Shown piece by piece: positions 2,407 through 24,660 of a stretch of DNA of 42,013 bases. The DNA is from a virus: the IMG/VR virus record IMGVR_UViG_3300025009_000208. One strand, written 5' to 3'. The translations under genes were made by a program, and so were the position numbers. Numbering within the stretch: the stretch's first letter is position 1; each line of letters starts with the position of its first letter. Under the pieces are notes generated by a model, which saw nothing but the letters and a program-made list of their open reading frames with translations, did no database searches and was not told where the DNA came from.

Positions 2407-3372
2407 TTGGGACATAAACTTTTTAGACCTATTGGGACTGAATGGTTTGAGGAGGGTTTCTGGAGAATCGCAGAACCCTACGGAAATGCACCAGATACAA
2501 TTGGACAGTTCTTGGGAATAGATCAGACCGATTGGGATCAGTATAAAAATCTCAATGGCAATTATGTTTTAGAGGATGGAATCTACCATATCTATGACAC
2601 TCATTACCATTATCATCAAAAAGCAATTACTCCGGATAAGTTCAGAGAGATGCAGATTGATGTAGTTATATCTAGTTATCCAGGTCATGATGAAACCTAT
2701 GATCTCCTTTGTAAAACCTATAAACCTAATGCTAAAAGAGTTTGTCAACTTGGTAATAACGGACAAACTTCAAATGGAAAAAACCTCCTGATCTCAACCA
2801 ATTTTGTTCCGGACTATCTCTGTAACGCTGTTAATTATCACCAGGAATTTAATGAGGATACTTTCTGTTTCACCCCCTTGCGAAATTACAATAAGATAAC
2901 TTCTTTCATGAACGCACTTCAATCTCAGCCTGATTATCAGCTTTATTGGCAACTCAAAGACTTGATGCCTGACTTTGATTGGAAAAGCTACGGAGGTGGC
3001 TGTGAGGATGGAGCATTTCATGATGAGGAAGGAATAGCAGAGGAAATGAAAAACTCGTTATTTATTTGGCAAGTCAAATCTCAAGGTGATGGATATGGTC
3101 ATTTACCCCACCAAGCAGCAGCAATTGGCAGACCTTTTATTTACAAAGGTTCTTATTATAATGGACAAATGCCCGGAAGATTGGCAAATGATGATACCTG
3201 TATAAATATTGACAGTATGAGTCCAAATGAAATTGCTGATAAAATCCGATTCTTTTCAAGACCGGAAGTGGCAGATCAGATGAGTAAAGCAATTAGGAAT
3301 AAATTTGAAAGTGAGGTCAACTTTGAGGAAGATGCTAAAAAGGTCGCTGCGTTTCTTGACAACCTGATTTGA
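2407..3372 (+). CDS. Hypothetical protein of the sugar island, possibly GT-B-like
   Basis: 321-aa ORF. The first possible in-frame start after the TAG at 2359-2361 is TTG at 2407, and the first ATG is 81 codons further in. The C-terminal half (GHLPHQAAAIGRPFIY...) loosely resembles GT-B C-terminal domains. Confidence 0.35.
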   Translation: MGHKLFRPIGTEWFEEGFWRIAEPYGNAPDTIGQFLGIDQTDWDQYKNLNGNYVLEDGIYHIYDTHYHYHQKAITPDKFREMQIDVVISSYPGHDETYDLLCKTYKPNAKRVCQLGNNGQTSNGKNLLISTNFVPDYLCNAVNYHQEFNEDTFCFTPLRNYNKITSFMNALQSQPDYQLYWQLKDLMPDFDWKSYGGGCEDGAFHDEEGIAEEMKNSLFIWQVKSQGDGYGHLPHQAAAIGRPFIYKGSYYNGQMPGRLANDDTCINIDSMSPNEIADKIRFFSRPEVADQMSKAIRNKFESEVNFEEDAKKVAAFLDNLI

Positions 3373-3386
3373 GTTGGTGTTATAAT
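3356..3386 (+). promoter_or_regulatory. Sigma70-type promoter TTGACA-N19-TATAAT with TGn extended -10
   Basis: TTGACA at 3356-3361, TGT then TATAAT at 3381-3386. The ATG of the next gene is at 3398 and there is no SD between. Confidence 0.6.
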
Positions 3387-3397
3387 GAATTATTGCT

Positions 3398-3952
3398 ATG
3401 AACGCTAAACTTCATCTCACAGAGAATGTTACCTATCGGGTATTTGATAAAAGTGGTAAACCCAAAAAGATTTTCAAAGAGAATAAACTTTGGAAGTTAA
3501 TCAAGAAATTCCTTCATTTAGATCTTCAAATTCCTTACTTCACAGGCAACTTTGGTTATACCAAAACCCTTGCAAACTTAGTTACTACAGCAGGGAAAGC
3601 TGGTGTTGCCTCAAGAATCAATGGAGATGGAGCTTTGGCAGCCTTTACTTACCTAGCAGTTGGAATTGGAACTACTGCTGCTGATGCTGCTGACACCGCA
3701 CTTGAATCGGAGATTGTTGACTCCGGGCTTGAGAGAGCTGCAGCCACTTGTTCCAGGGTAACTACGGATGTAACTAATGATACCGCACAACTTCTTAAAT
3801 CTTGGTCTGTTACTGGAACAAAAGCAGTAACTGAGGCAGGAGCACTTAACGCAGCTTCAACCGGGACACTTCTTGGTAGACAGGTATTCTCCGCAATCAA
3901 TGTAGTTTCAGGAGATACCCTCCAAATCACTTATAAATTCGACGTCGATTAG
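3398..3952 (+). CDS. Virion (tail-module) protein, unknown function
   Basis: 184-aa ORF with ATG start. The segment AAFTYLAVGIGTTAADAADTALESEI resembles the N-terminal pattern of tail-collar/fibre proteins. It is the first gene after the sugar island. Confidence 0.4.
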   Translation: MNAKLHLTENVTYRVFDKSGKPKKIFKENKLWKLIKKFLHLDLQIPYFTGNFGYTKTLANLVTTAGKAGVASRINGDGALAAFTYLAVGIGTTAADAADTALESEIVDSGLERAAATCSRVTTDVTNDTAQLLKSWSVTGTKAVTEAGALNAASTGTLLGRQVFSAINVVSGDTLQITYKFDVD

Positions 3953-4001
3953 TAAGTGGAGTTTGATGTTGACTAATCCTCTAGTCTATACTTAATCTAA
4001 T

Positions 4002-5300
4002 ATGGCAGCACCTACGGGCGGAACAATAACAACAGATGGTGATTATACAGTCCACACTTTTCTTCTAGCTGATAGTGGAACTGATTTTACTGTTTACAAT
4101 TCAGGAAATGTAGCAGTTTTAGTTGTGGCTGGTGGTGGTGGTGGCGGTGGGACTTCTGCTGGAAATGCTGGTGGGGGCGGGGGCGGGGGTGTTTTGTCTG
4201 ACGCTTCTTTTGCCGTAACAGCACAAGCCTATACAGTTACTGTTGGTGCGGGTGGAAATGTCGGTGCATCAAATACAAAAGGTAGTAATGGTGGTAGTTC
4301 CGTATTTTCTACATTAACCGCAGTTGGCGGTGGAGGAGGAGGTGCATATAATACTGGCTCTAACCAATCCGCAGCAGCAGGAGGTTCAGGTGGTGGTGCT
4401 GGGCAAAATGATGATGTTAGTAGTGATGTTGGTGGTGCTGGAACTGCAGGTCAGGGTAATGATGGAGGAGATTTAAGTTCGACAAGTGCATACGGAGGAG
4501 CAGGAGGTGGAGGTGCTGGAGCTGTTGGAGCAAACACATCAGGAACAAATGGAAAAGAGGGTGGTGCAGGTGGTGCAGGAGTATCCTCAACAATTTATGA
4601 TGGCTCAACAAAATATTACGGAGCAGGAGGAGGAGGAAGCACTCATAATTCAGGAAGCGGAGTAGCAGCAGGAGGTTCAAGTATCGGGGGAAGTGGTCAT
4701 TACACCACTACAGCAGGAACAAGTGGTGCGGTAAATACAGGTAGTGGTGGAGGTGGAGCAGGAGAAACTGTTGCAGGAGGTAACGGAAGTTCAGGTGTCG
4801 TCATTATCAGATATTTAACAAGTGATTTTCCAGCAAATACTGATTGGACAACAACTCTTACAGATGTTGTAACAATAGTTGATACCATTATTAGAAATGA
4901 AACAAGAATTTTATCAGACATTGTTACAGTCGTTGATACTTTTATAAGGGGTAAAATTATTACCGAAGTCATAACTATTACTGATTCCGTAAACAAGAGT
5001 GCAGGAAAAGTTATAAGCGACATAGTAACAATCACAGAGTTCATTATCAAATCTATCCAAAAAATATTAACAGATCAAATATCAATTTCAGATACTATTG
5101 AAAAACTCTTTAACTATGCAGGAAGATTACCAGCTTATATCTATGCTAAGATAACAAAATCGGTAGGAATATTTGGAAAGAAAGATAAGCCTGGTGTCGG
5201 AGTATCGGGTTCAGTTGCTTCTCCCACAGGCTTTATTAACGACAAGGACAAACCTGGTATTGGAGTAGCTCACTCTGTTGACAAACCAGAGAGGGTTTAG
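4002..5300 (+). CDS. Glycine-rich tail fibre-like protein with C-terminal ~17-aa repeats
   Basis: N-terminal YTVHTF...VLVVAGGGGGGG followed by long GGxGG runs. Five repeats of type (S/T)D(I/V)VT(I/V)xD... are encoded at about nt 4850-5110. Confidence 0.6.
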   Translation: MAAPTGGTITTDGDYTVHTFLLADSGTDFTVYNSGNVAVLVVAGGGGGGGTSAGNAGGGGGGGVLSDASFAVTAQAYTVTVGAGGNVGASNTKGSNGGSSVFSTLTAVGGGGGGAYNTGSNQSAAAGGSGGGAGQNDDVSSDVGGAGTAGQGNDGGDLSSTSAYGGAGGGGAGAVGANTSGTNGKEGGAGGAGVSSTIYDGSTKYYGAGGGGSTHNSGSGVAAGGSSIGGSGHYTTTAGTSGAVNTGSGGGGAGETVAGGNGSSGVVIIRYLTSDFPANTDWTTTLTDVVTIVDTIIRNETRILSDIVTVVDTFIRGKIITEVITITDSVNKSAGKVISDIVTITEFIIKSIQKILTDQISISDTIEKLFNYAGRLPAYIYAKITKSVGIFGKKDKPGVGVSGSVASPTGFINDKDKPGIGVAHSVDKPERV

Positions 5301-18397: not shown

Positions 18398-18430
18398 ATA
18401 CTACACTATGAATTATTAAATGTCAATAGG
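18398..18430 (-). promoter_or_regulatory. Leftward promoter CCTATTGACA-N11-ATAGTGTAGTAT (TTGACA-N17-TAGTAT)
   Basis: Reverse strand has TTGACA at 18426-18421 and TAGTAT at 18403-18398. It shares the extended motif with the promoter at 22597-22629. Confidence 0.55.
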
Positions 18431-18812
18431 GGAATTGATGAGTAATAACACCATTAACTATTGCATTTTTTGCAATAGAGTCCATACTTTGTATATGAAA
18501 AGAAAATATTATAATGCCCTGAAAATAATAAGGAGAGATGATTATACCTGCCAAGACTGCAAAAAAGCGTTTGAATTGAATCAGTTATTGGTTCATCACA
18601 TAGACAAAAACCCAAGCAATAATTCTGATTCAAATTTGATTACCCTCTGTCAATATTGCCACAAGGCACGACATGGACTTCTTGCTGGTAAAAGAGAAGA
18701 TGTTGCTGAAATGAGAAGTATGGGACTAACACTTCAAGAAATTGGGGATGTCTTAGGAGTTACTCATCAAAGAGTTCAACAGATAGATGCCAGAAATAGG
18801 AAACTGACATAG
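18420..18812 (+). CDS. HNH endonuclease fused to a sigma70-region-4-like HTH
   Basis: CIFCN...CQDCKK...LLVHHIDKNPSNNSDSNLITLCQYCHKARHG, then MRSMGLTLQEIGDVLGVTHQRVQQIDARNRKL. It lies on the opposite strand to the surrounding arm. Confidence 0.75.
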   Translation: MSIGELMSNNTINYCIFCNRVHTLYMKRKYYNALKIIRRDDYTCQDCKKAFELNQLLVHHIDKNPSNNSDSNLITLCQYCHKARHGLLAGKREDVAEMRSMGLTLQEIGDVLGVTHQRVQQIDARNRKLT

Positions 18813-18951: not shown

Positions 18952-19084
18952 GGAGGCGGGACTTTAATAGTGCCTCCCGGATCACGAAGCTCATCCTTCA
19001 GCATACAGGGATGAATTTGTGAAAGGACATGTGAACCTTTGAACGATAGGAGGGAATGTCCCCCGGAAATGAAACAAGTTCCGG
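18952..19084 (+). other. Four consecutive hairpins in a 318-nt ORF-free gap (candidate structured leader or ncRNA)
   Basis: GGAGGC/GCCTCC (18952-57 with 18972-77); TCATCC/GGATGA (18991-96 with 19009-14); GGACAT/ATGTCC (19025-30 with 19056-61); CCGGAA/TTCCGG (19063-68 with 19079-84). Confidence 0.3.
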
Positions 19085-19130
19085 CTGAAGCAATCGTTTA
19101 GAAAATACCTGGTGGGGGGTTGGGGGGAAC

Positions 19131-19382
19131 ATGATTCTAGCCCAAGCCTTAGCTCCAGGGATAGTTTTTAACATGACCAAACAAGAAGTAATGAAATTGA
19201 TTAAAGCCAAAGGAAGCAAAGGCAATGCCATAGCTCAAGCCTTGAAGGATTACTTTGCCCAAGAGATAGGGAGTGGAGGGATAAAGCCAATGCAATACTA
19301 TCATGCTGGGGATCTCCAAAGAGAAAATATAAACGGAAAAAATGATATAGTTAAAGTGGCACAGCAGATCTTTGCTGTCTAG
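19131..19382 (+). CDS. Hypothetical protein (+ strand island)
   Basis: ATG at 19131 preceded by GGGGGGAAC. The composition is protein-like (MTKQEVMKLIKAKGSKGNAIAQALKDYF...). The stop TAG is part of the 13-mer promoter motif. Confidence 0.5.
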   Translation: MILAQALAPGIVFNMTKQEVMKLIKAKGSKGNAIAQALKDYFAQEIGSGGIKPMQYYHAGDLQRENINGKNDIVKVAQQIFAV

Positions 19383-19412
19383 TTGACATGACTTGGAGTT
19401 ACATCATAAAAT
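19378..19412 (+). promoter_or_regulatory. 13-mer promoter motif TCTAGTTGACATG plus TAAAAT -10 (18-nt spacer)
   Basis: TTGACA at 19383-19388, TAAAAT at 19407-19412. No protein-like ORF lies downstream on this strand. Confidence 0.5.
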
Positions 19413-19443
19413 TGAAAAGCTAGAATACTTCAAAAAAGTATCC
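19405..19443 (-). terminator. Rho-independent-type terminator for leftward transcripts
   Basis: Reverse strand reads GGATACTT-TTTTG-AAGTATTC followed by TAGCTTTTCAATTTTA. The stem has a G-U pair on the - strand that becomes an A-C mismatch on the + strand. Confidence 0.4.
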
Positions 19444-19500
19444 TTAGTTCTCAGGCAGAGGCTAATCGTTTGGGCAAGCGGTTAGCCTTTTGCTATTATT
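19419..19500 (+). ncRNA. Candidate ~80-nt small RNA, antisense to the 3' region of the leftward transcript
   Basis: It is bounded by the promoter at 19378-19412 and the + strand terminator at 19460-19500. No ORF. Two hairpins. Confidence 0.3.
19460..19500 (+). terminator. Rho-independent terminator for rightward transcripts
   Basis: GGCTAATCG (19460-68) pairs with CGGTTAGCC (19479-87) and is followed by TTTTGCTATTATT. The stem has a G-U pair on the + strand that becomes a C-A mismatch on the - strand. Confidence 0.55.
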
Positions 19501-19675
19501 TGAGGGTGGCTCTGCAGAGTTGTATTAAGCTCCAAAGCGTAGGAAGAACAACCAAAAACATAAACCATATAATGATGTCATTGTGTTCAACTATTCCGAA
19601 CTTGGTTAAGAAAAATCCGACAGCTAACCACGCAACTAAGGAGTGCCACGCTATAATTTTATTTAGAAGACTCAT
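19496..19675 (-). CDS. Small (59-aa) hydrophobic protein, below the ORF-track cutoff
   Basis: Strong SD AAAGGGGGTGA 7 nt upstream of ATG at 19675. Translation is MSLLNKIIAWHSLVAWLAVGFFLTKFGIVEHNDIIIWFMFLVVLPTLWSLIQLCRATLK. Confidence 0.55.
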   Translation of the reverse strand: MSLLNKIIAWHSLVAWLAVGFFLTKFGIVEHNDIIIWFMFLVVLPTLWSLIQLCRATLK

Positions 19676-19690
19676 CTTGATTCACCCCCT

Positions 19691-19873
19691 TTATTTGCGA
19701 CCATCACGCTTAATGTGTTTCTTTTGACATTCAGGTTTTCTATCCGGGATGATTGGTTTGGTAGGAGTTGGACTCTGAGGAATTTCAACTTTAAGGAAAG
19801 TAACTTTCCCATTCTCTGCAACAAATGGTTTTCCAAGCATAACGCCTGTGTAAATATCATGTTCGTGTGTCAT
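19691..19873 (-). CDS. Hypothetical protein with basic C-terminal tail KKHIKRDGRK
   Basis: 60-aa ORF with ATG start. Confidence 0.5.
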   Translation of the reverse strand: MTHEHDIYTGVMLGKPFVAENGKVTFLKVEIPQSPTPTKPIIPDRKPECQKKHIKRDGRK

Positions 19874-20123
19874 TACCTTTATTGTAGTCTGCGGGAGATA
19901 TTACTGCAATTTTCTGGATACCTATGAGGGGAAATTCCCTGTAATCATTCCGGAGATAACAGTTCGCTTCCACATAATCTTCTCCGTTCTTAACCTTTAA
20001 CCGCATGGGTTCAATCACTCTATCTCGGGTGATCTTTAGTTTTTTGTCAACGAAGTCAATCTTCAACCACCGCTTATCAAGGATGGCTTTCTCAATTGAT
20101 TGTCTGAGGTATATTTGATTCAT
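19857..20123 (-). CDS. Standalone WYL-domain protein (88 aa)
   Basis: WLKIDFVDKKLKITRDRVIEPMRLKVKNGEDYVEANCYLRNDYREFPLIGIQKIAV follows the WYL pattern (..R.v.P..l....g.wYl.a.C.lr.d.R.F.l.rI..i..). Confidence 0.6.
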   Translation of the reverse strand: MNQIYLRQSIEKAILDKRWLKIDFVDKKLKITRDRVIEPMRLKVKNGEDYVEANCYLRNDYREFPLIGIQKIAVISPADYNKGNDTRT

Positions 20124-20265
20124 GATTTTTTCCTATGCCACATTTACATCTAGTGGCAGTTCTTATTGGTTCACCAATGTTTATTATCTCTTTCCTTCCA
20201 CCAGGCGTAAGAACTATGGTTTCTTTTCTTTGAATGTATCCGTATTTAATATGATCCCTTTTCAT
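20092..20265 (-). CDS. Possible small protein (57 aa), below the ORF-track cutoff
   Basis: ATG at 20265. Translation MKRDHIKYGYIQRKETIVLTPGGRKEIINIGEPIRTATRCKCGIGKNHESNIPQTIN is protein-like. There is no clear SD and it overlaps the WYL gene by 32 nt. Confidence 0.3.
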   Translation of the reverse strand: MKRDHIKYGYIQRKETIVLTPGGRKEIINIGEPIRTATRCKCGIGKNHESNIPQTIN

Positions 20266-20292
20266 AATAATTGTCTAAGGATACCCTGGGCT

Positions 20293-20955
20293 TTAGCCCT
20301 GGGAGGAATTAGACTTATCCCCTAAATTTAATAACCGTTCTTGTCTTTGAGTTCTTAAATTGTATGTTCTTTGTGGTAATACCTCGTTCAGTATTTTGAG
20401 TGAATCTTTGTTTGAGTAATAGAGTTTGAAGAAAATTTGAAGTTTCATCACATCCAAGTATTTTAGTGTTTTCTTTTTGCCGTCATAATCAATACACCAA
20501 GCATCGGGATTGACCAGATTTATGTAGTGAAAAAGTTCATCCCTCCATAAAACCTCACAAACCTTGTCTATCAATACCCAACCTTTTTGGTTTTGCTTTA
20601 TTCTTGGTGACTTGTTACCCTTTTCCAAATCTTCTAAAATATAAACACCGCAATCTCCTATTCTTCCAATGTCGTATTTGATGTATTCTTCTAATTTAGA
20701 TTCTGGTATTACTAGAAATCTATGAGTAAACAAACCTAAAGCACCGTTAAACTGGCTTGTTAATCTATCAAAAGTATCATATTCCGTCTTTATTTCAAAA
20801 TAAGTGAAGGAATCTTTATCTAAAATAACAAAATCAGGTCTTAAACTACCACCAAAAGAAGTAAATTCAAATTGTTGGAAATTACCGTTACCTTCAAAAA
20901 CTTTAGCCAAAACTTCCTTATAATACTTTTCGTCTTTTTTAATTATATCTGCCAT
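20293..20955 (-). CDS. MmcB-like PD-(D/E)XK nuclease-fold protein
   Basis: RPDFVILDKDSFTYFEIKTEYDTFDRLTSQ...FLVIPESKL shows D-x13-E-x-K spacing, as in PD-(D/E)XK enzymes of the MmcB type. Its start codon shares one base with the tnpA-like stop. Confidence 0.5.
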   Translation of the reverse strand: MADIIKKDEKYYKEVLAKVFEGNGNFQQFEFTSFGGSLRPDFVILDKDSFTYFEIKTEYDTFDRLTSQFNGALGLFTHRFLVIPESKLEEYIKYDIGRIGDCGVYILEDLEKGNKSPRIKQNQKGWVLIDKVCEVLWRDELFHYINLVNPDAWCIDYDGKKKTLKYLDVMKLQIFFKLYYSNKDSLKILNEVLPQRTYNLRTQRQERLLNLGDKSNSSQG

Positions 20956-21500
20956 TAAAATAACCTCCCTTGGGTGAAATCACCAATAGTCTGGTGCTTA
21001 TTCCCATAAACATTAAATTGAAAAACATCCTTACCTTGTTGCTCTAAAATGTAGCGTTTCACCGCATCCTGTGATACGTGACCAGCACTACCAATGTAAT
21101 ATCCTCTTGCCCATAGGAAAGGAAACTTTTTGTAATGTATTCGGTAGCCAAGATAATTTAGGTCTAAAAATGCCTGTCTTAATCTTCGTGAAGTATTGCC
21201 TTTAATCTTCCTCACTATCTCGTAGGGTGTATGGGTAGGTAAGGCAGAAACAAATAAGTGAATGTGGTCTGGCATTACTTCCAATGCCAACATTTCTAAA
21301 TTCAATTCTTTACACTGTTCCCCGATAATTTGCTTTAGAAAATCTGCTACCTTACCCACCAGTAATTTCTTCCGATATTTTGGTATCCAGACAATGTGGT
21401 AATTGATATTGTGTTTACAATGGCTACCACTTTTGACACTAGATATTTTGACTTGAATATCGTAGGTTTTAGGATTAAAGTGTGGGTATTGGTTAAGCAT
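20955..21500 (-). CDS. tnpA: IS200/IS605-type Y1 HUH transposase homolog (TnpA-like)
   Basis: NYHIVWIPKYRKKLL; HUH motif in MPDHIHLFV; C-terminal ARGYYIGSAG and catalytic-Tyr helix AVKRYILEQQ. Confidence 0.85.
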   Translation of the reverse strand: MLNQYPHFNPKTYDIQVKISSVKSGSHCKHNINYHIVWIPKYRKKLLVGKVADFLKQIIGEQCKELNLEMLALEVMPDHIHLFVSALPTHTPYEIVRKIKGNTSRRLRQAFLDLNYLGYRIHYKKFPFLWARGYYIGSAGHVSQDAVKRYILEQQGKDVFQFNVYGNKHQTIGDFTQGRLF

Positions 21501-21720
21501 ATGTTTTGTTTGAAACTATCGGCTTTAGCCGATAGGTGTCTAAAACATTCCGGGTAATCAATCTACTAAATTCAGCATAAAATCTTTTGTTTGGTTTTGC
21601 TGTTGTTTCAATCGCATTAGAATACATCTCTCCATCACTATCAATTAAAAAGAATTGGAAACGCCAATGTCCCTTCTTAGATGGAATCATAATCTGAACT
21701 GTTTTATATTTTTCTTCCAT
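21493..21720 (-). CDS. Hypothetical protein
   Basis: 75-aa ORF with ATG start. The 3' end overlaps the tnpA-like start by 8 nt and runs through the hairpin at 21516-21535. Confidence 0.45.
   Translation of the reverse strand: MEEKYKTVQIMIPSKKGHWRFQFFLIDSDGEMYSNAIETTAKPNKRFYAEFSRLITRNVLDTYRLKPIVSNKTYA
21516..21535 (-). promoter_or_regulatory. Perfect 8-bp hairpin 16 nt upstream of the tnpA-like start
   Basis: CTATCGGC-TTTA-GCCGATAG. On the - strand it is followed by TTTCAAACAAAACAT then ATG. Confidence 0.4.
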
Positions 21721-21732
21721 AAGCTTACTAAT

Positions 21733-21762
21733 GCGGAGGCGGGGTGATAAGTTCTCCTCCGC
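21733..21762 (-). promoter_or_regulatory. Intergenic hairpin (7-bp GC-rich stem)
   Basis: GCGGAGG (21733-39) pairs with CCTCCGC (21756-62). It lies between the SSB-like gene and the next gene. No T tract. Confidence 0.35.
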
Positions 21763-21775
21763 ACTATAAACCTAC

Positions 21776-22420
21776 TTAGCTTTCACTATCTCCATTGAGA
21801 TTGTAGGCTGCTTCCAATGAAACACCGGAATCGGCTATCATTGTTACCTCTTTATCAGACAATTCTGATTTATTTGGTGAAGGCATAATTGTATAGGTCG
21901 TATTCCTTGCGATCCCTTCCTTATTGATTGTGATGTCATACTTGCGTATATCACCATATTCGGCATTGGTTTCGTAAGCAACAATCTGTCTGAATACTGT
22001 GATCGGAGATTCGTAAACATAAGGTTTACCATCTTTACGATTTAACACAAGAAATGCGTATTTGAATTTCTTTGGCTTTCCGGCTTTACAAAGCTCACAG
22101 CCTGTATCAGAACAAATTGTTGTTGAATATTTACCCCCGGACTTATCTTCGTGATAAGCTACTTCTAAGGCTTTTGTGCAGATGCGGATTTTATTCGCAC
22201 CATCCTCAAGCTTGAGAAAGTTACCACTTCCGGAAGGAATATCATATTTTGTTACATCTTCTATAAATTTTGGCATATTATTTTTGTTGCTCACCCCCTT
22301 TCTAATTTCGCTAACTTCTTCCAAATCAAATATATTATTGTCAGTAGTAGTCTTAACATCCTTGTTCTCCTCAATGATTCCGTCAATAAAAAGCTGATCT
22401 CCCTTACTTAATTGATCCAT
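21776..22420 (-). CDS. T4 gp32-like single-stranded DNA-binding protein
   Basis: H-x12-C-x4-C-x2-C zinc motif (YHEDKSGGKYSTTICSDTGCELCKAG) parallels the gp32 sequence as I recall it (HGFKKNGKWYIETCSST...CPVC, from memory). It is preceded by GNFLKLEDGANKIRI. Confidence 0.65.
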   Translation of the reverse strand: MDQLSKGDQLFIDGIIEENKDVKTTTDNNIFDLEEVSEIRKGVSNKNNMPKFIEDVTKYDIPSGSGNFLKLEDGANKIRICTKALEVAYHEDKSGGKYSTTICSDTGCELCKAGKPKKFKYAFLVLNRKDGKPYVYESPITVFRQIVAYETNAEYGDIRKYDITINKEGIARNTTYTIMPSPNKSELSDKEVTMIADSGVSLEAAYNLNGDSES

Positions 22421-22595
22421 GCTTAATTCTCAAGAGTTCAGAAGCCGGAATCCGGTAGAACTTTCGTTCCTTACCGAATCCGACATTCTGTGCCTTGATC
22501 CTATGGGTTTCAATCATTCTAGTGATAGTCCGTCTGCTTACTTTCAAGATCCCGGCTGCTTCCTCAACTGTGTATAATTCGTCTGTCATTTCCAT
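22404..22595 (-). CDS. Excisionase/MerR-type helix-turn-helix DNA-binding protein
   Basis: YTVEEAAGILKVSRRTITRMIETHRIKAQ...YRIPASELLRI. The functional start may be the second ATG at 22589. Confidence 0.65.
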   Translation of the reverse strand: MEMTDELYTVEEAAGILKVSRRTITRMIETHRIKAQNVGFGKERKFYRIPASELLRIKHGSIK

Positions 22596-22596
22596 T

Positions 22597-22629
22597 ATAT
22601 TACACTATAGATACCTATTTGTCAATAGG
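22597..22629 (-). promoter_or_regulatory. Leftward promoter CCTATTGACA-N11-ATAGTGTAATAT (TTGACA-N17-TAATAT)
   Basis: Reverse strand has TTGACA at 22625-22620 and TAATAT at 22602-22597. The ATG codons at 22595 and 22589 follow immediately. Confidence 0.55.
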
Positions 22630-22994
22630 ATTCTGATTAAACCTGAATCATATTTCCGGTGGCAAGATGGACAAAGCATGATATAGTTCTCTCTATCTTT
22701 AGTATATTTCTTGCCATGTATCAGGGCATATTCAAATCTTTTCGGTTTCCGTAATGTTATCCCGGCTGCATTTTTTCTCGGATAAATACAATCAGGATTC
22801 TCACAATGGGTTGCTCTTTTCCAACGATACCGGATGTAAGTATGCAAACTCGTGTAGGTAATATTGTTTCCTTTCCACCTTGCACTTTTCTCACCCGATT
22901 TGCCCACCATCCAGGGAGCACCTGTCCTTTTATGTGCTTCACTCATTTTTTTACGAGTCGTTTTTGAATGTTTAGTATGAATCCTTCTCGCCAT
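22605..22994 (-). CDS. HNH endonuclease
   Basis: THCENPDC...EYALIHGKKYTKDRENYIMLCPSCHRKYD. Confidence 0.6.
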   Translation of the reverse strand: MARRIHTKHSKTTRKKMSEAHKRTGAPWMVGKSGEKSARWKGNNITYTSLHTYIRYRWKRATHCENPDCIYPRKNAAGITLRKPKRFEYALIHGKKYTKDRENYIMLCPSCHRKYDSGLIRILLTNRYL

Positions 22995-23289
22995 TGTAAC
23001 CTCTTTCTATGACTCTCAAATTTCGGCAAATTTCTATCAAACATTCCTTAGTTGTCAAAAGCACCCGGACTTTATACTTCAGTCCCAGGTATTTTTCTGC
23101 AATAGGTTCTTGGGCTAGTTGTAACTTTGAACTGGCTTCCCTTTGCCCTTCCGTCTTTTCCATAGCGTGTAACAATTTCTTGTAATACGATCCGTAATAT
23201 TCCGATTCCAATTTTTCAAGTTGTGGAATCAGAACTTCCAGTTCTTCCATCACTCCAACCATTTTTTCATTAGCTTCTTTTAATGTCAT
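22972..23289 (-). CDS. Hypothetical coiled-coil protein
   Basis: 105-aa ORF with GGAGGTGA SD upstream of ATG at 23289. Confidence 0.5.
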   Translation of the reverse strand: MTLKEANEKMVGVMEELEVLIPQLEKLESEYYGSYYKKLLHAMEKTEGQREASSKLQLAQEPIAEKYLGLKYKVRVLLTTKECLIEICRNLRVIERGYNGEKDSY

Positions 23290-23346
23290 AATTTTTTCAC
23301 CTCCGATCCGTCAATCTCCTCAAAACTTAACTGTCCTTTCCATCCG

Positions 23347-23514
23347 TCAAGTAGTCTGCGTAGTTCCGCAGTCCAGGCACTCCCAAACTGTTTCATAATC
23401 ATCCGGGCTAGTCTGTTGATTGTATTTTATAATTCTATGGCTTCCACAATCCGGGCAAGTTTCATTGTCCAGGTGTTCCGGTTCTTCAATGTCCCGATCT
23501 TGATCTTCATCCAT
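23347..23514 (-). CDS. Small zinc-ribbon protein (55 aa), below the ORF-track cutoff
   Basis: Translation is MDEDQDRDIEEPEHLDNETCPDCGSHRIIKYNQQTSPDDYETVWECLDCGTTQTT, with two CxxC pairs. The start overlaps the end of the upstream gene. Confidence 0.5.
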   Translation of the reverse strand: MDEDQDRDIEEPEHLDNETCPDCGSHRIIKYNQQTSPDDYETVWECLDCGTTQTT

Positions 23515-23695
23515 AATAGTTCACCCCCTCGCTACTTAATACAAACAAAAATATAAATAGTATGTATAAAGTAAATCCGAACACTACTCCTTCAATGAAT
23601 GGAATCATTAAGCGATAGTTTTTCTGTCCTCTTAATAGTTTGTGGTGTCTTAACCATTGTCCGGCTAAAACTTTAATATCTCTAATAGTTCTCAT
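23507..23695 (-). CDS. Small membrane protein
   Basis: ATGA overlap with the SprT-like stop. Hydrophobic VVFGFTLYILFIFLFVL. Confidence 0.5.
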   Translation of the reverse strand: MRTIRDIKVLAGQWLRHHKLLRGQKNYRLMIPFIEGVVFGFTLYILFIFLFVLSSEGVNYYG

Positions 23696-24132
23696 AGTAG
23701 TTTGAATTTTAGTAAATACTTTTTGTTAAATCGTGGGCTACATTTTCCACATGATAATTTTCTTTTTCTGTTGTAATGGCTAATATCTCCGCAGTTTTTA
23801 CAGGTCGCTATATACTTATATTTTGGTTTTAATACATTATTTGGATACAATCTTTGACCATCACACCCGATTGATATAGCCTTTTGTTTCCATTCGTTTC
23901 CATGATGTATTCCTTTCGGTAGTAAGGCGTGGGCTATTTCGTGAAGTATTGTATTTTTAACTCTTGCTCCGTCATTTAATAGTGTTAGTTCTCTTGAGAG
24001 TGTTATTTTCTTTTTTGAATAATGGCAACACCCGAAACGCCTTACCGAATAGTCAAACTCAAATGACCAATCAGTCAAGTTGTGCAGTTTCATCAGATCA
24101 TGGGCTAGTTTTATAGTGTCCTTAATTCTCAT
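23692..24132 (-). CDS. SprT-like zinc metalloprotease with C-terminal zinc ribbon
   Basis: HEIAHALLP...HHGNEW (HExxH) plus CKNCG...CGKC. I chose ATG at 24132. The track start at 24147 is a GTG that lies inside the TATAAT box. Confidence 0.7.
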   Translation of the reverse strand: MRIKDTIKLAHDLMKLHNLTDWSFEFDYSVRRFGCCHYSKKKITLSRELTLLNDGARVKNTILHEIAHALLPKGIHHGNEWKQKAISIGCDGQRLYPNNVLKPKYKYIATCKNCGDISHYNRKRKLSCGKCSPRFNKKYLLKFKLL

Positions 24133-24312: not shown

Positions 24313-24660
24313 CCCTTGATCATGATCATGACCTTGATCTATGTCTTAGCCTTAGCTCATGCCCTTGATCAATGCCTTAGCCTATGCCTTGACCTATGAT
24401 CATGACCTTGATCTTAGTTAATAACATGACCAATGGCATAGCCTTGATACTGTATAGTCCCCATAGTCATGTCTTAGACTTAGCACTTAGCCTAAGGCAT
24501 TGCCAATGCTATGACCTTGATCATGATCATAGCTATAGCTAAGCCTTAGCTATGACTATGATCTATACCATGACCATGACCATGATCATGACCATGATAT
24601 ATACCATGATCAGTGCAAGGCTATGGCTTAGGCTTGACCTTGACCAATGGCTTAGGCTTT
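24313..24660. repeat. Hexanucleotide-periodic, palindrome-dense non-coding block
   Basis: Runs of 6-nt words: CCTTGA TCATGA TCATGA CCTTGA TCTATG TCTTAG CCTTAG ... CCATGA CCATGA CCATGA TCATGA CCATGA. I counted 11 GATC and 13 CATG. Stops occur in all frames. Confidence 0.8.

Follow-up and report, generated by a model that had tools for sequence, protein, structure and literature searches.

The minus strand of a 42,013-nt viral contig (IMG/VR record IMGVR_UViG_3300025009_000208; this whole stretch is referred to below as the window) carries at positions 21545–20263 a tightly packed series of features. Following the strand, these are a left-end (LE) hairpin, a tnpA gene, a gene for a PD-(D/E)XK-like protein, a 46-nt right-end (RE) motif made of two helices, and a terminal ..TTATG. 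A first-pass annotation of this DNA had proposed that TnpA is a domesticated enzyme working in replication or recombination together with the nuclease-like protein and a single-stranded DNA-binding (SSB) protein encoded nearby. Our analysis leads to a different interpretation: the 1283-bp segment is most probably (we put the probability at about 0.78) a transposon of the IS200/IS605 family that carries a cargo gene, and TnpA is the transposase of this element. The minus strand is the active 'top' strand of the element.

The transposase and its gene neighbourhood

The tnpA open reading frame (ORF; 20955–21500, minus strand) encodes a Y1 HUH transposase of 181 aa, as was recognised already in the first pass. 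It matches Pfam Y1_Tnp with an E-value of 1.5e-35 (cut-off 23 bits) and a PHROG family annotated as 'transposase' at 5.6e-41, and its residues 22–158 align with the solved structures 2EC2 (5e-32), 2F4F, ISHp608 (1.6e-22) and ISDra2 (8e-20) from the PDB. The reading frame is intact, and both catalytic motifs, H79-I-H81 and Y150-x3-Q154, are in place. Compared to the solved TnpA structures, the protein has about 21 extra residues at the N-terminus and about 23 at the C-terminus.

The gene is packed closely between its neighbours, in the way described before: its start overlaps by 8 nt an upstream 75-aa ORF (21493–21720, minus strand), and it has one base in common (in TAATG) with the downstream 220-aa ORF (20293–20955, minus strand), which we call the cargo gene. 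The last 17 codons of the 75-aa ORF are read from the LE and the frame ends in ATGCTTAA, overlapping the tnpA start; its tail is probably a hybrid that couples translation into tnpA. Neither TnpB nor IscB was found inside the element, in agreement with the earlier observation that such a partner is missing, and an Rfam 15 scan of window positions 19500–22500 gave no match for LE or RE at E≤1, no HEARO RNA and no intron.

Structure of the two ends

The LE (21501–21545, minus strand) starts with TTTT-AGACAC, continues through the hairpin and TTTCAAAC... and extends to the tnpA start. The hairpin at 21516–21535, CTATCGGC-TAAA-GCCGATAG, has a perfect 8-bp stem and was located correctly in the first pass, which had found no matching hairpin on the right. 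Such a hairpin is present. The 10-mer GGCTAAAGCC, forming the top of the left hairpin, exists in exactly two copies across all 42 kb of the window. They lie on the minus strand, at 21521–21530 and at 20289–20298, and the second copy sits in the RE motif (20271–20316). The RE hairpin (20284–20303) has GGC-TAAA-GCC in common with that of the LE. The RE is built from an outer stem GTCTAA/TTAGAC (20314–20309 with 20278–20273), an internal loop TTCCT/TATCC between the two stems, and an inner stem CCCAGGGC/GCCCAGGG with an A-A mismatch (20303–20296 with 20291–20284), closed by the loop TAAA (20295–20292). Our covariance model of the RE (R1) found this site with 59.4 bits and an E-value of 2e-15 as the sole match in the window, and the motif is 93% identical to the RE of L001, one of the loci compared here.

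Reading frames continue into the RE and out of it. The last codons of the 220-aa ORF lie inside the motif, with its TAA stop in the hairpin loop, and an ATG follows 7 nt past the outer stem. This terminal ATG of the element (20263–20265, context ..AATTATTATG) is the start codon of a 57-aa ORF (20092–20265, minus strand), the presumed target gene, which would now be started from the RE-supplied ATG and is present in all 19 contigs of this phage. On the left, the flanking ATG (21546–21548, minus strand, context ggAATG), presumed to be the target or cleavage site 5' of the element, is followed by four atypical nucleotides, TTTT.

Both structures show covariation. Among 60 distinct RE sequences, changes on both sides were seen at 12 of the 14 base pairs, with a covariation score of 0.591, while shuffles scored 0.131 and slid controls no more than 0.125; the set had been pre-filtered for pairing in the inner stem, not in the outer one, and the outer stem covaries at 6/6 pairs. 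All five pairs of the LE stem covary across 22 LE variants; these stems were picked by a best-pairing search, and the percentage paired is therefore biased. The LE hairpin of the window folds as single-stranded DNA (ssDNA) with a z of -3.5, and the predicted RNA fold of the RE agrees with the covarying structure. In several clades (L295, L298, L327) the cores of the two ends are the same, TCCTCCCA-hairpin-GGGGTATC. The window LE aligns with those of L001, L292, L293 and L003, homology with L001 beginning at 21533. Additional outer stems around the LE were considered, ATGTTTT/AAAACAT in the window and GAAAC/GTTTC in L001 and L003; they are not general across the family and we do not claim them. 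A scan of viral contigs with a loose LE pattern (CTCTA..TAAA..TAGTTTC) returned chance matches only, none of them with a hairpin.

Elements of the IS200/IS605 family have subterminal hairpins at both ends on one strand, lack terminal inverted repeats and insert 3' of a short specific sequence (PMC13565253). The window element combines a Y1 HUH transposase that has its catalytic tyrosine with subterminal hairpins of the same strand at LE and RE. Its ends (TTTTAGACAC.. and ..AATTATTATG), as read from the sequence, are not complementary, so that terminal inverted repeats are absent, and the core common to LE and RE is repeated in direct instead of inverted orientation. The same element is also found in unrelated contexts, as seen in L001–L005 and L046, in the comparison of L001 with L292, and in its absence from the related phage L052. 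The statement of the first-pass annotation that the gene is not arranged like a free insertion sequence (IS) does not hold once the cargo gene is counted within the element. Its fallback, a very compact IS200-like insertion, was right about the kind of element and wrong about compactness, since this is a 1.28-kb element with a cargo gene and a clear RE.

Relatives and insertion sites

TnpA relatives with 56–84% identity are found in dozens of otherwise unrelated viral contigs and in metagenome contigs. L001–L005 and L046 have only the tnpA block and the RE block in common with the window, and between L001 and L292 homology runs from the left ATG to the right ATG only, with different genes in between. 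An RE lies 338–2113 nt downstream of tnpA in 26 of the 28 loci with enough sequence. L292 is one of the two exceptions, as its RE is split by the insertion of an HNH gene. There (L292:6260–6700) the break falls in the RE hairpin loop, with ..CCCAGGGCTAAA separated by about 430 nt from ..TTAAAGCCCAGGGTA, and the small inserted gene contains an endonuclease VII/HNH-like motif (DHDHKTGKIRGLLCSSCN), giving a mobile element nested in a transposon end.

Incomplete copies exist as well. In L112 both ends persist, enclosing a methyltransferase and a tnpA with an internal deletion, and L005 and L046 are truncated at the 5' end. Deleted derivatives repeatedly retain only the last 25–40 codons of tnpA (L046:10001–10114, L112:6981–7073, L143:22–93 and L147:7562–7633). 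The retained part encodes the clade-specific C terminus ending in ..GDFTQGRLF, and its DNA has GGGAGG just upstream of the cargo start; this tail may have been kept because it provides the cargo gene with a ribosome-binding region.

Left flanks from 40 distinct contexts are unrelated to each other as far as AAATG; conservation sets in with the base that follows, which is always A. Adenine is found at positions -1, -2 and -3 in 34, 38 and 31, respectively, of 44 regex matches, which comprise 40 valid junctions and 4 false matches. Shine-Dalgarno (SD)-like 4-mers precede 43% of left junctions vs 20% of random control ATGs. In 15 of 33 cases the junction coincides exactly with the end of an upstream ORF of 40 codons or more, whose stop either overlaps the start as ATGA or is a TAA placed immediately before the ATG. 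On the right, (T)TATG appears 8–17 nt after the RE in about 47 distinct copies, and the sequence past this ATG is unrelated between copies. Among 30 closed cases, the RE-supplied ATG is the start of an ORF with 40 codons or more in 24, compared to 29% of random control ATGs. The RE of L338 directly abuts the LE of a second element via a single ATG (L338:1124–1200), and L305 contains a tandem copy of the element (L305:3865–5230). Such an arrangement may be a tandem insertion or resemble a junction; the RE-supplied ATG is therefore itself a target.

The clade was found only in viral and metagenomic contigs: searches of genome collections hit contigs of metagenome-assembled genomes only, and the best TnpA match by tblastn among 50,697 GenBank phage records is 44% identical. 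GenBank phages contained no match to window positions 19000–24000 (megablast) or to an RE variant (blastn), and a BLAST of the flanks against all loci returned no pair with an element-free counterpart.

Cargo genes and the link to IscB

The cargo protein of the window has no Pfam match above threshold. D41, E54 and K56 are invariant in 11 homologs, and an AlphaFold2 model built from the alignment reached a pLDDT of 86.9. Foldseek matches to this model are weak, all above an E-value of 1e-3: 3DNX (E 5e-3, probability 1.00), VC1899 and the Can2 nuclease domain, top ranks which we take to be PD-(D/E)XK nucleases, with 3DNX representing the MmcB-like family. The presence of a D...(D/E)xK motif and of the core fold in the model supports a PD-(D/E)XK-like protein, in line with the first-pass assignment. 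Homologs of the cargo family are encoded in other phages without either tnpA or RE and end about 10 aa earlier. The cargo gene appears to have been captured from the phage gene pool.

What else is carried by these elements? A Pfam scan of 45 ORFs of at least 100 aa located between tnpA and RE identified seven N6_N4 DNA methylases, five C5 DNA methylases, two D12 methyltransferases, one Dam, and one each of RNA ligase, LAGLIDADG, GIY-YIG and HNH proteins. Many of the remaining surveyed ORFs belong to no known family, and small ORFs are also among the cargo.

Many seemingly 'solo' RE copies are in fact right ends of IscB elements, many of them on contigs of IMG sample 3300045988. A clear example is L098:3070–4690, where a HEARO RNA (3070–3309, 84.6 bits) is followed by IscB (3372–4634; RRXRR at 4e-59 plus HNH), the RE (4644–4672) and then ATG. 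The LE hairpin of this element (3078–3097) has the same stem as its RE.

The window copy and its host phage

The contig L052 comes from a true relative of the window phage, with about 77% nucleotide identity over the terminase, SSB, HTH and WYL genes. It does not contain the region corresponding to window positions 20124–21717, with tnpA and the nuclease-like gene, and no RE match was found in it. Since L052 keeps SSB and WYL without tnpA, tnpA and the nuclease-like gene are dispensable for that backbone. The SSB-like ORF (21776–22420, minus strand, 214 aa) matches PHROG SSB families at 5e-12 to 1e-7, as expected from the earlier assignment, and from its conservation in L052 we regard it as a resident, ordinary neighbouring phage gene.

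Several observations weigh against the transposon interpretation of this locus. The first-pass annotation had pointed to an empty site in relatives as a decisive comparison, and a relative lacking the element does exist in L052, but its boundaries are not clean: the gap exceeds the element, and the 75-aa and 57-aa ORFs are missing as well. For the window copy we found no clean empty site whose limits coincide exactly with LE and RE. When the predicted empty site ACCCGGAATGAAAAGGGA was searched for as an exact string, a single chance match without other similarity came up, and the search for homologs of the 75-aa ORF, aimed at the same site, led only to the 19 contigs of the same phage, all with the element. 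The left end is also unusual. It reads ATG+TTTT+AGACAC-CTA, while other copies have ATG+A(C/A)A..CTCTA/CTCCC (in relatives, ATG-A(A/C)ACACTCTA stands in its place), so that the spacing exceeds theirs by 2 nt and only part of the conserved pyrimidine tract is left. Due to this atypical LE the 75-aa upstream ORF reads through the LE and stops over the tnpA start codon. All 19 contigs of the phage are identical here and recent movement is not evident; the window copy may be fixed or immobile. Finally, an ATG is found at both boundaries of the element, and a target plus an element end looks the same in sequence as a 3-nt repeat, so that from sequence alone the ATG on each side can be assigned either to the flank or to the element. 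With IS608 as precedent, where the target remains part of the left flank, the assignment used here (left ATG in the flank, right ATG in the element) is the more likely one.

We also considered the whole 1597-bp L052 gap, which runs from ATG to ATG, as the mobile unit. It was rejected because the LE hairpin would then be about 185 nt from the left boundary, vs about 10–25 nt in about 40 other copies.

Other differences and similarities between the two phages surround the locus. The SSB-like protein has 168 aa in L052 (L052:6007–6513), and the first ~40 residues of the 214-aa window protein have no L052 counterpart. Directly 3' of the SSB gene there is a G+C-rich hairpin (21722–21773), kept at L052:6521–6548 with changed stem bases (GCGGAGG..CCTCCGC vs GCGGGGG..CCTCCGC region); this is probably the terminator of the SSB transcript and marks, upstream of the insertion, the border of the native operon. 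On the other side, immediately downstream of the inserted DNA, an 88-aa protein consisting of a WYL domain alone (19857–20123, minus strand; Pfam 1e-10) is conserved in L052. Window region 22629–23011, with an HNH/NUMOD3 endonuclease gene (HNH ORF 22605–22994, minus strand), is absent from L052, where the neighbours of the missing gene (a 105-aa ORF and HTH) are adjacent to each other; this gene is probably a separate insertion of a free-standing homing endonuclease. A second HNH gene is located at 18420–18812 (plus strand). Short tandem repeats at 24317–24612 (TGATCA units, a 31-nt unit present 2.5 times, and ATGACCATGATC present five times) occupy the divergent intergenic region between the early genes of the minus strand and the terminase operon of the plus strand, and are a candidate origin or regulatory region. 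The first-pass annotation had suggested 24313–24660 as a substrate of TnpA; nothing links these repeats to the element.

Proposed mechanism

How would such an element move? The scheme that we propose follows the biology of IS608 and ISDra2, as summarised in PMC13565253. By analogy with these systems, a TnpA dimer would bind the LE and RE hairpins in single-stranded DNA and make two cuts through Y150, one in the left flank on the 3' side of (A)AATG, the other at the RE on the 3' side of TTATG. The excised element would be a single-stranded circle, to be pasted 3' of another AAATG. For the window copy, the predicted empty site is ..TTGATTACCCGGAATG/AAAAGGGATCAT.. and the predicted RE-LE junction of the circle is ..GACAATTATTATG/TTTTAGACACCTATCGG.., which can also be written ..AATTATTATG/TTTTAGACACC.. 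(slashes mark the joints).

The AAATG target typically comprises the spacer and start codon of a phage gene, often within an ATGA stop/start overlap, and because AAATG is found at gene starts, the element would land exactly at gene boundaries. The first base of the element, A, would preserve the overlapping TGA stop of the upstream gene, and its last three bases would provide a new start codon for the interrupted gene; an SD-like stretch of purines often lies immediately 5' of the RE stem. The original SD and ATG would then drive a short leader into the LE, towards tnpA. In this scheme the window element is a copy of a virus-restricted branch of IS200/IS605 that acts as a nearly harmless shuttle for gene cassettes: it would insert 3' of a start-codon AAATG, save the upstream stop with its first base, and, in its structured RE (SD-like run, stem and ATG), also carry along a cassette for starting translation, so that methyltransferases, nucleases and IscB could hop between unrelated phages without breaking operons. 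To this full scheme, which goes beyond the class of the element, we would give even odds.

Phage genomes are tightly packed and the insertion of a transposon normally destroys a gene. If the scheme is true, targeting of start codons together with a replacement start would explain how accessory genes (anti-restriction methyltransferases, nucleases, IscB) spread between unrelated phages at precise gene boundaries. Mosaicism of phages at gene boundaries has been noted long since, with few mechanisms behind it. Phage-borne IscB/HEARO elements would thereby gain defined ends and a candidate TnpA acting in trans, and LE/RE plus AAATG, being a short and well-defined ssDNA site, could possibly serve as a programmable insertion tool. 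As for the window itself, the idea of a novel HUH-based replication module is removed.

Alternative explanations

That idea, as put forward originally, was that a domesticated HUH enzyme, together with the nuclease and SSB, serves the phage by nicking a hairpin origin, so that rolling-circle replication or recombination can start. It is in keeping with the ORF scans, in which we recognised no polymerase, primase or initiator, with the atypical LE of the window copy and the arrangement fixed in 19 contigs, and with the translational coupling of tnpA to neighbouring ORFs. However, L052 has the same SSB/HTH/WYL backbone with neither tnpA nor the nuclease-like gene at the locus and no RE, the linkage of tnpA with SSB is seen in no other locus, and the tnpA clade occurs in unrelated phages beside unrelated genes, with sharp ATG-to-ATG boundaries. 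The partner gene varies and the nuclease family is also encountered without tnpA. Recurrent transposon ends, changing partners and the state of L052 make domestication, in our opinion, highly improbable. A different possibility is that the 46-nt motif is an RNA element only, for translation initiation or regulation, with tnpA and a single hairpin being an IS200 remnant that lies upstream by chance. SD-like GGAGG is often present 3–5 nt before the outer stem and ATG 8–17 nt after it, the internal loop contains anti-SD-like CCUCC, the predicted RNA fold is the same as the covarying structure, and of 118 loci containing the motif, 104 lack tnpA within the stretch retrieved. Against this, the motif follows the tnpA clade in the 26/28 loci described above and is not found beside those cargo homologs that occur without tnpA; its core recurs in the LE, it terminates IscB/HEARO transposons, and the RE abuts an LE in L338. 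The SD-like run is, in addition, absent in several copies (L297, L299, L300, L315, L342). We consider an exclusive RNA role to be very improbable indeed, while a dual role of the RE motif in DNA and RNA is quite possible and belongs to the transposon interpretation.

The remaining question is whether the window copy is a fossil, derived from a transposon and now immobile through degeneration of its LE, which would persist as the phage depends on the RE start codon, the cargo or both. Its LE has 4 extra nucleotides and no conserved CTCT/CTCC, the arrangement is identical in 19 assemblies, and relatives with 5' truncations or internal deletions do occur (L005, L046, L112). On the other hand, tnpA has an uninterrupted reading frame that encodes every catalytic residue, the RE is canonical and the LE hairpin is perfect. 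On balance a fossil appears unlikely, although it deserves to be taken seriously.

Comparison with known systems

The family to which the element belongs is known (IS200/IS605), and what is apparently undescribed are the clade, the 46-nt RE, the AAATG/start-codon target and the cargo spectrum. Our literature search, with ISfinder outside the comparison, found no description of the clade, the RE motif, the cargo spectrum or start-codon targeting. The window element resembles IS608/ISHp608 and ISDra2 in having a Y1 HUH TnpA of one fold family and same-strand subterminal hairpins. In contrast to these elements, its accessory gene is variable cargo instead of TnpB, its 46-nt RE contains two helices separated by a conserved 5x5 internal loop, the TnpA of its clade has conserved N- and C-terminal extensions, and the clade appears to target AAATG at start codons, with the element ending in ATG.

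Elements of the ISC/IscB type (OMEGA, HEARO; including the TnpA-bearing 'ISC2Y') are connected to the window element by the RE motif, which, followed by ATG, closes the IscB and HEARO element of L098. They differ in that the window element has neither IscB nor HEARO RNA, and the left flank of the L098 IscB element is not AAATG. IStrons, which combine an IS605-like element with a group I intron (e.g., CdISt1), also spare the gene hit by insertion. However, IStrons achieve the repair by RNA splicing, whereas the window element, with no intron (no Rfam match), would bring a replacement ATG.

REP/RAYT systems (TnpA-REP) similarly consist of a Y1 HUH protein and short conserved hairpins that are also found without the protein gene nearby. 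RAYT, however, is a single-copy chromosomal gene with inverted REPs and no cargo, while the ends in this clade are direct, enclose a cargo and move between phage genomes. Although the integron recombinase is a tyrosine integrase and not an HUH enzyme, and the window element has neither an attI platform nor an array, there is an analogy, and an analogy only, to integron cassettes with their attC sites: in both cases a folded single-strand recombination site is placed 3' of a promoterless cassette gene, and the cassettes are diverse.

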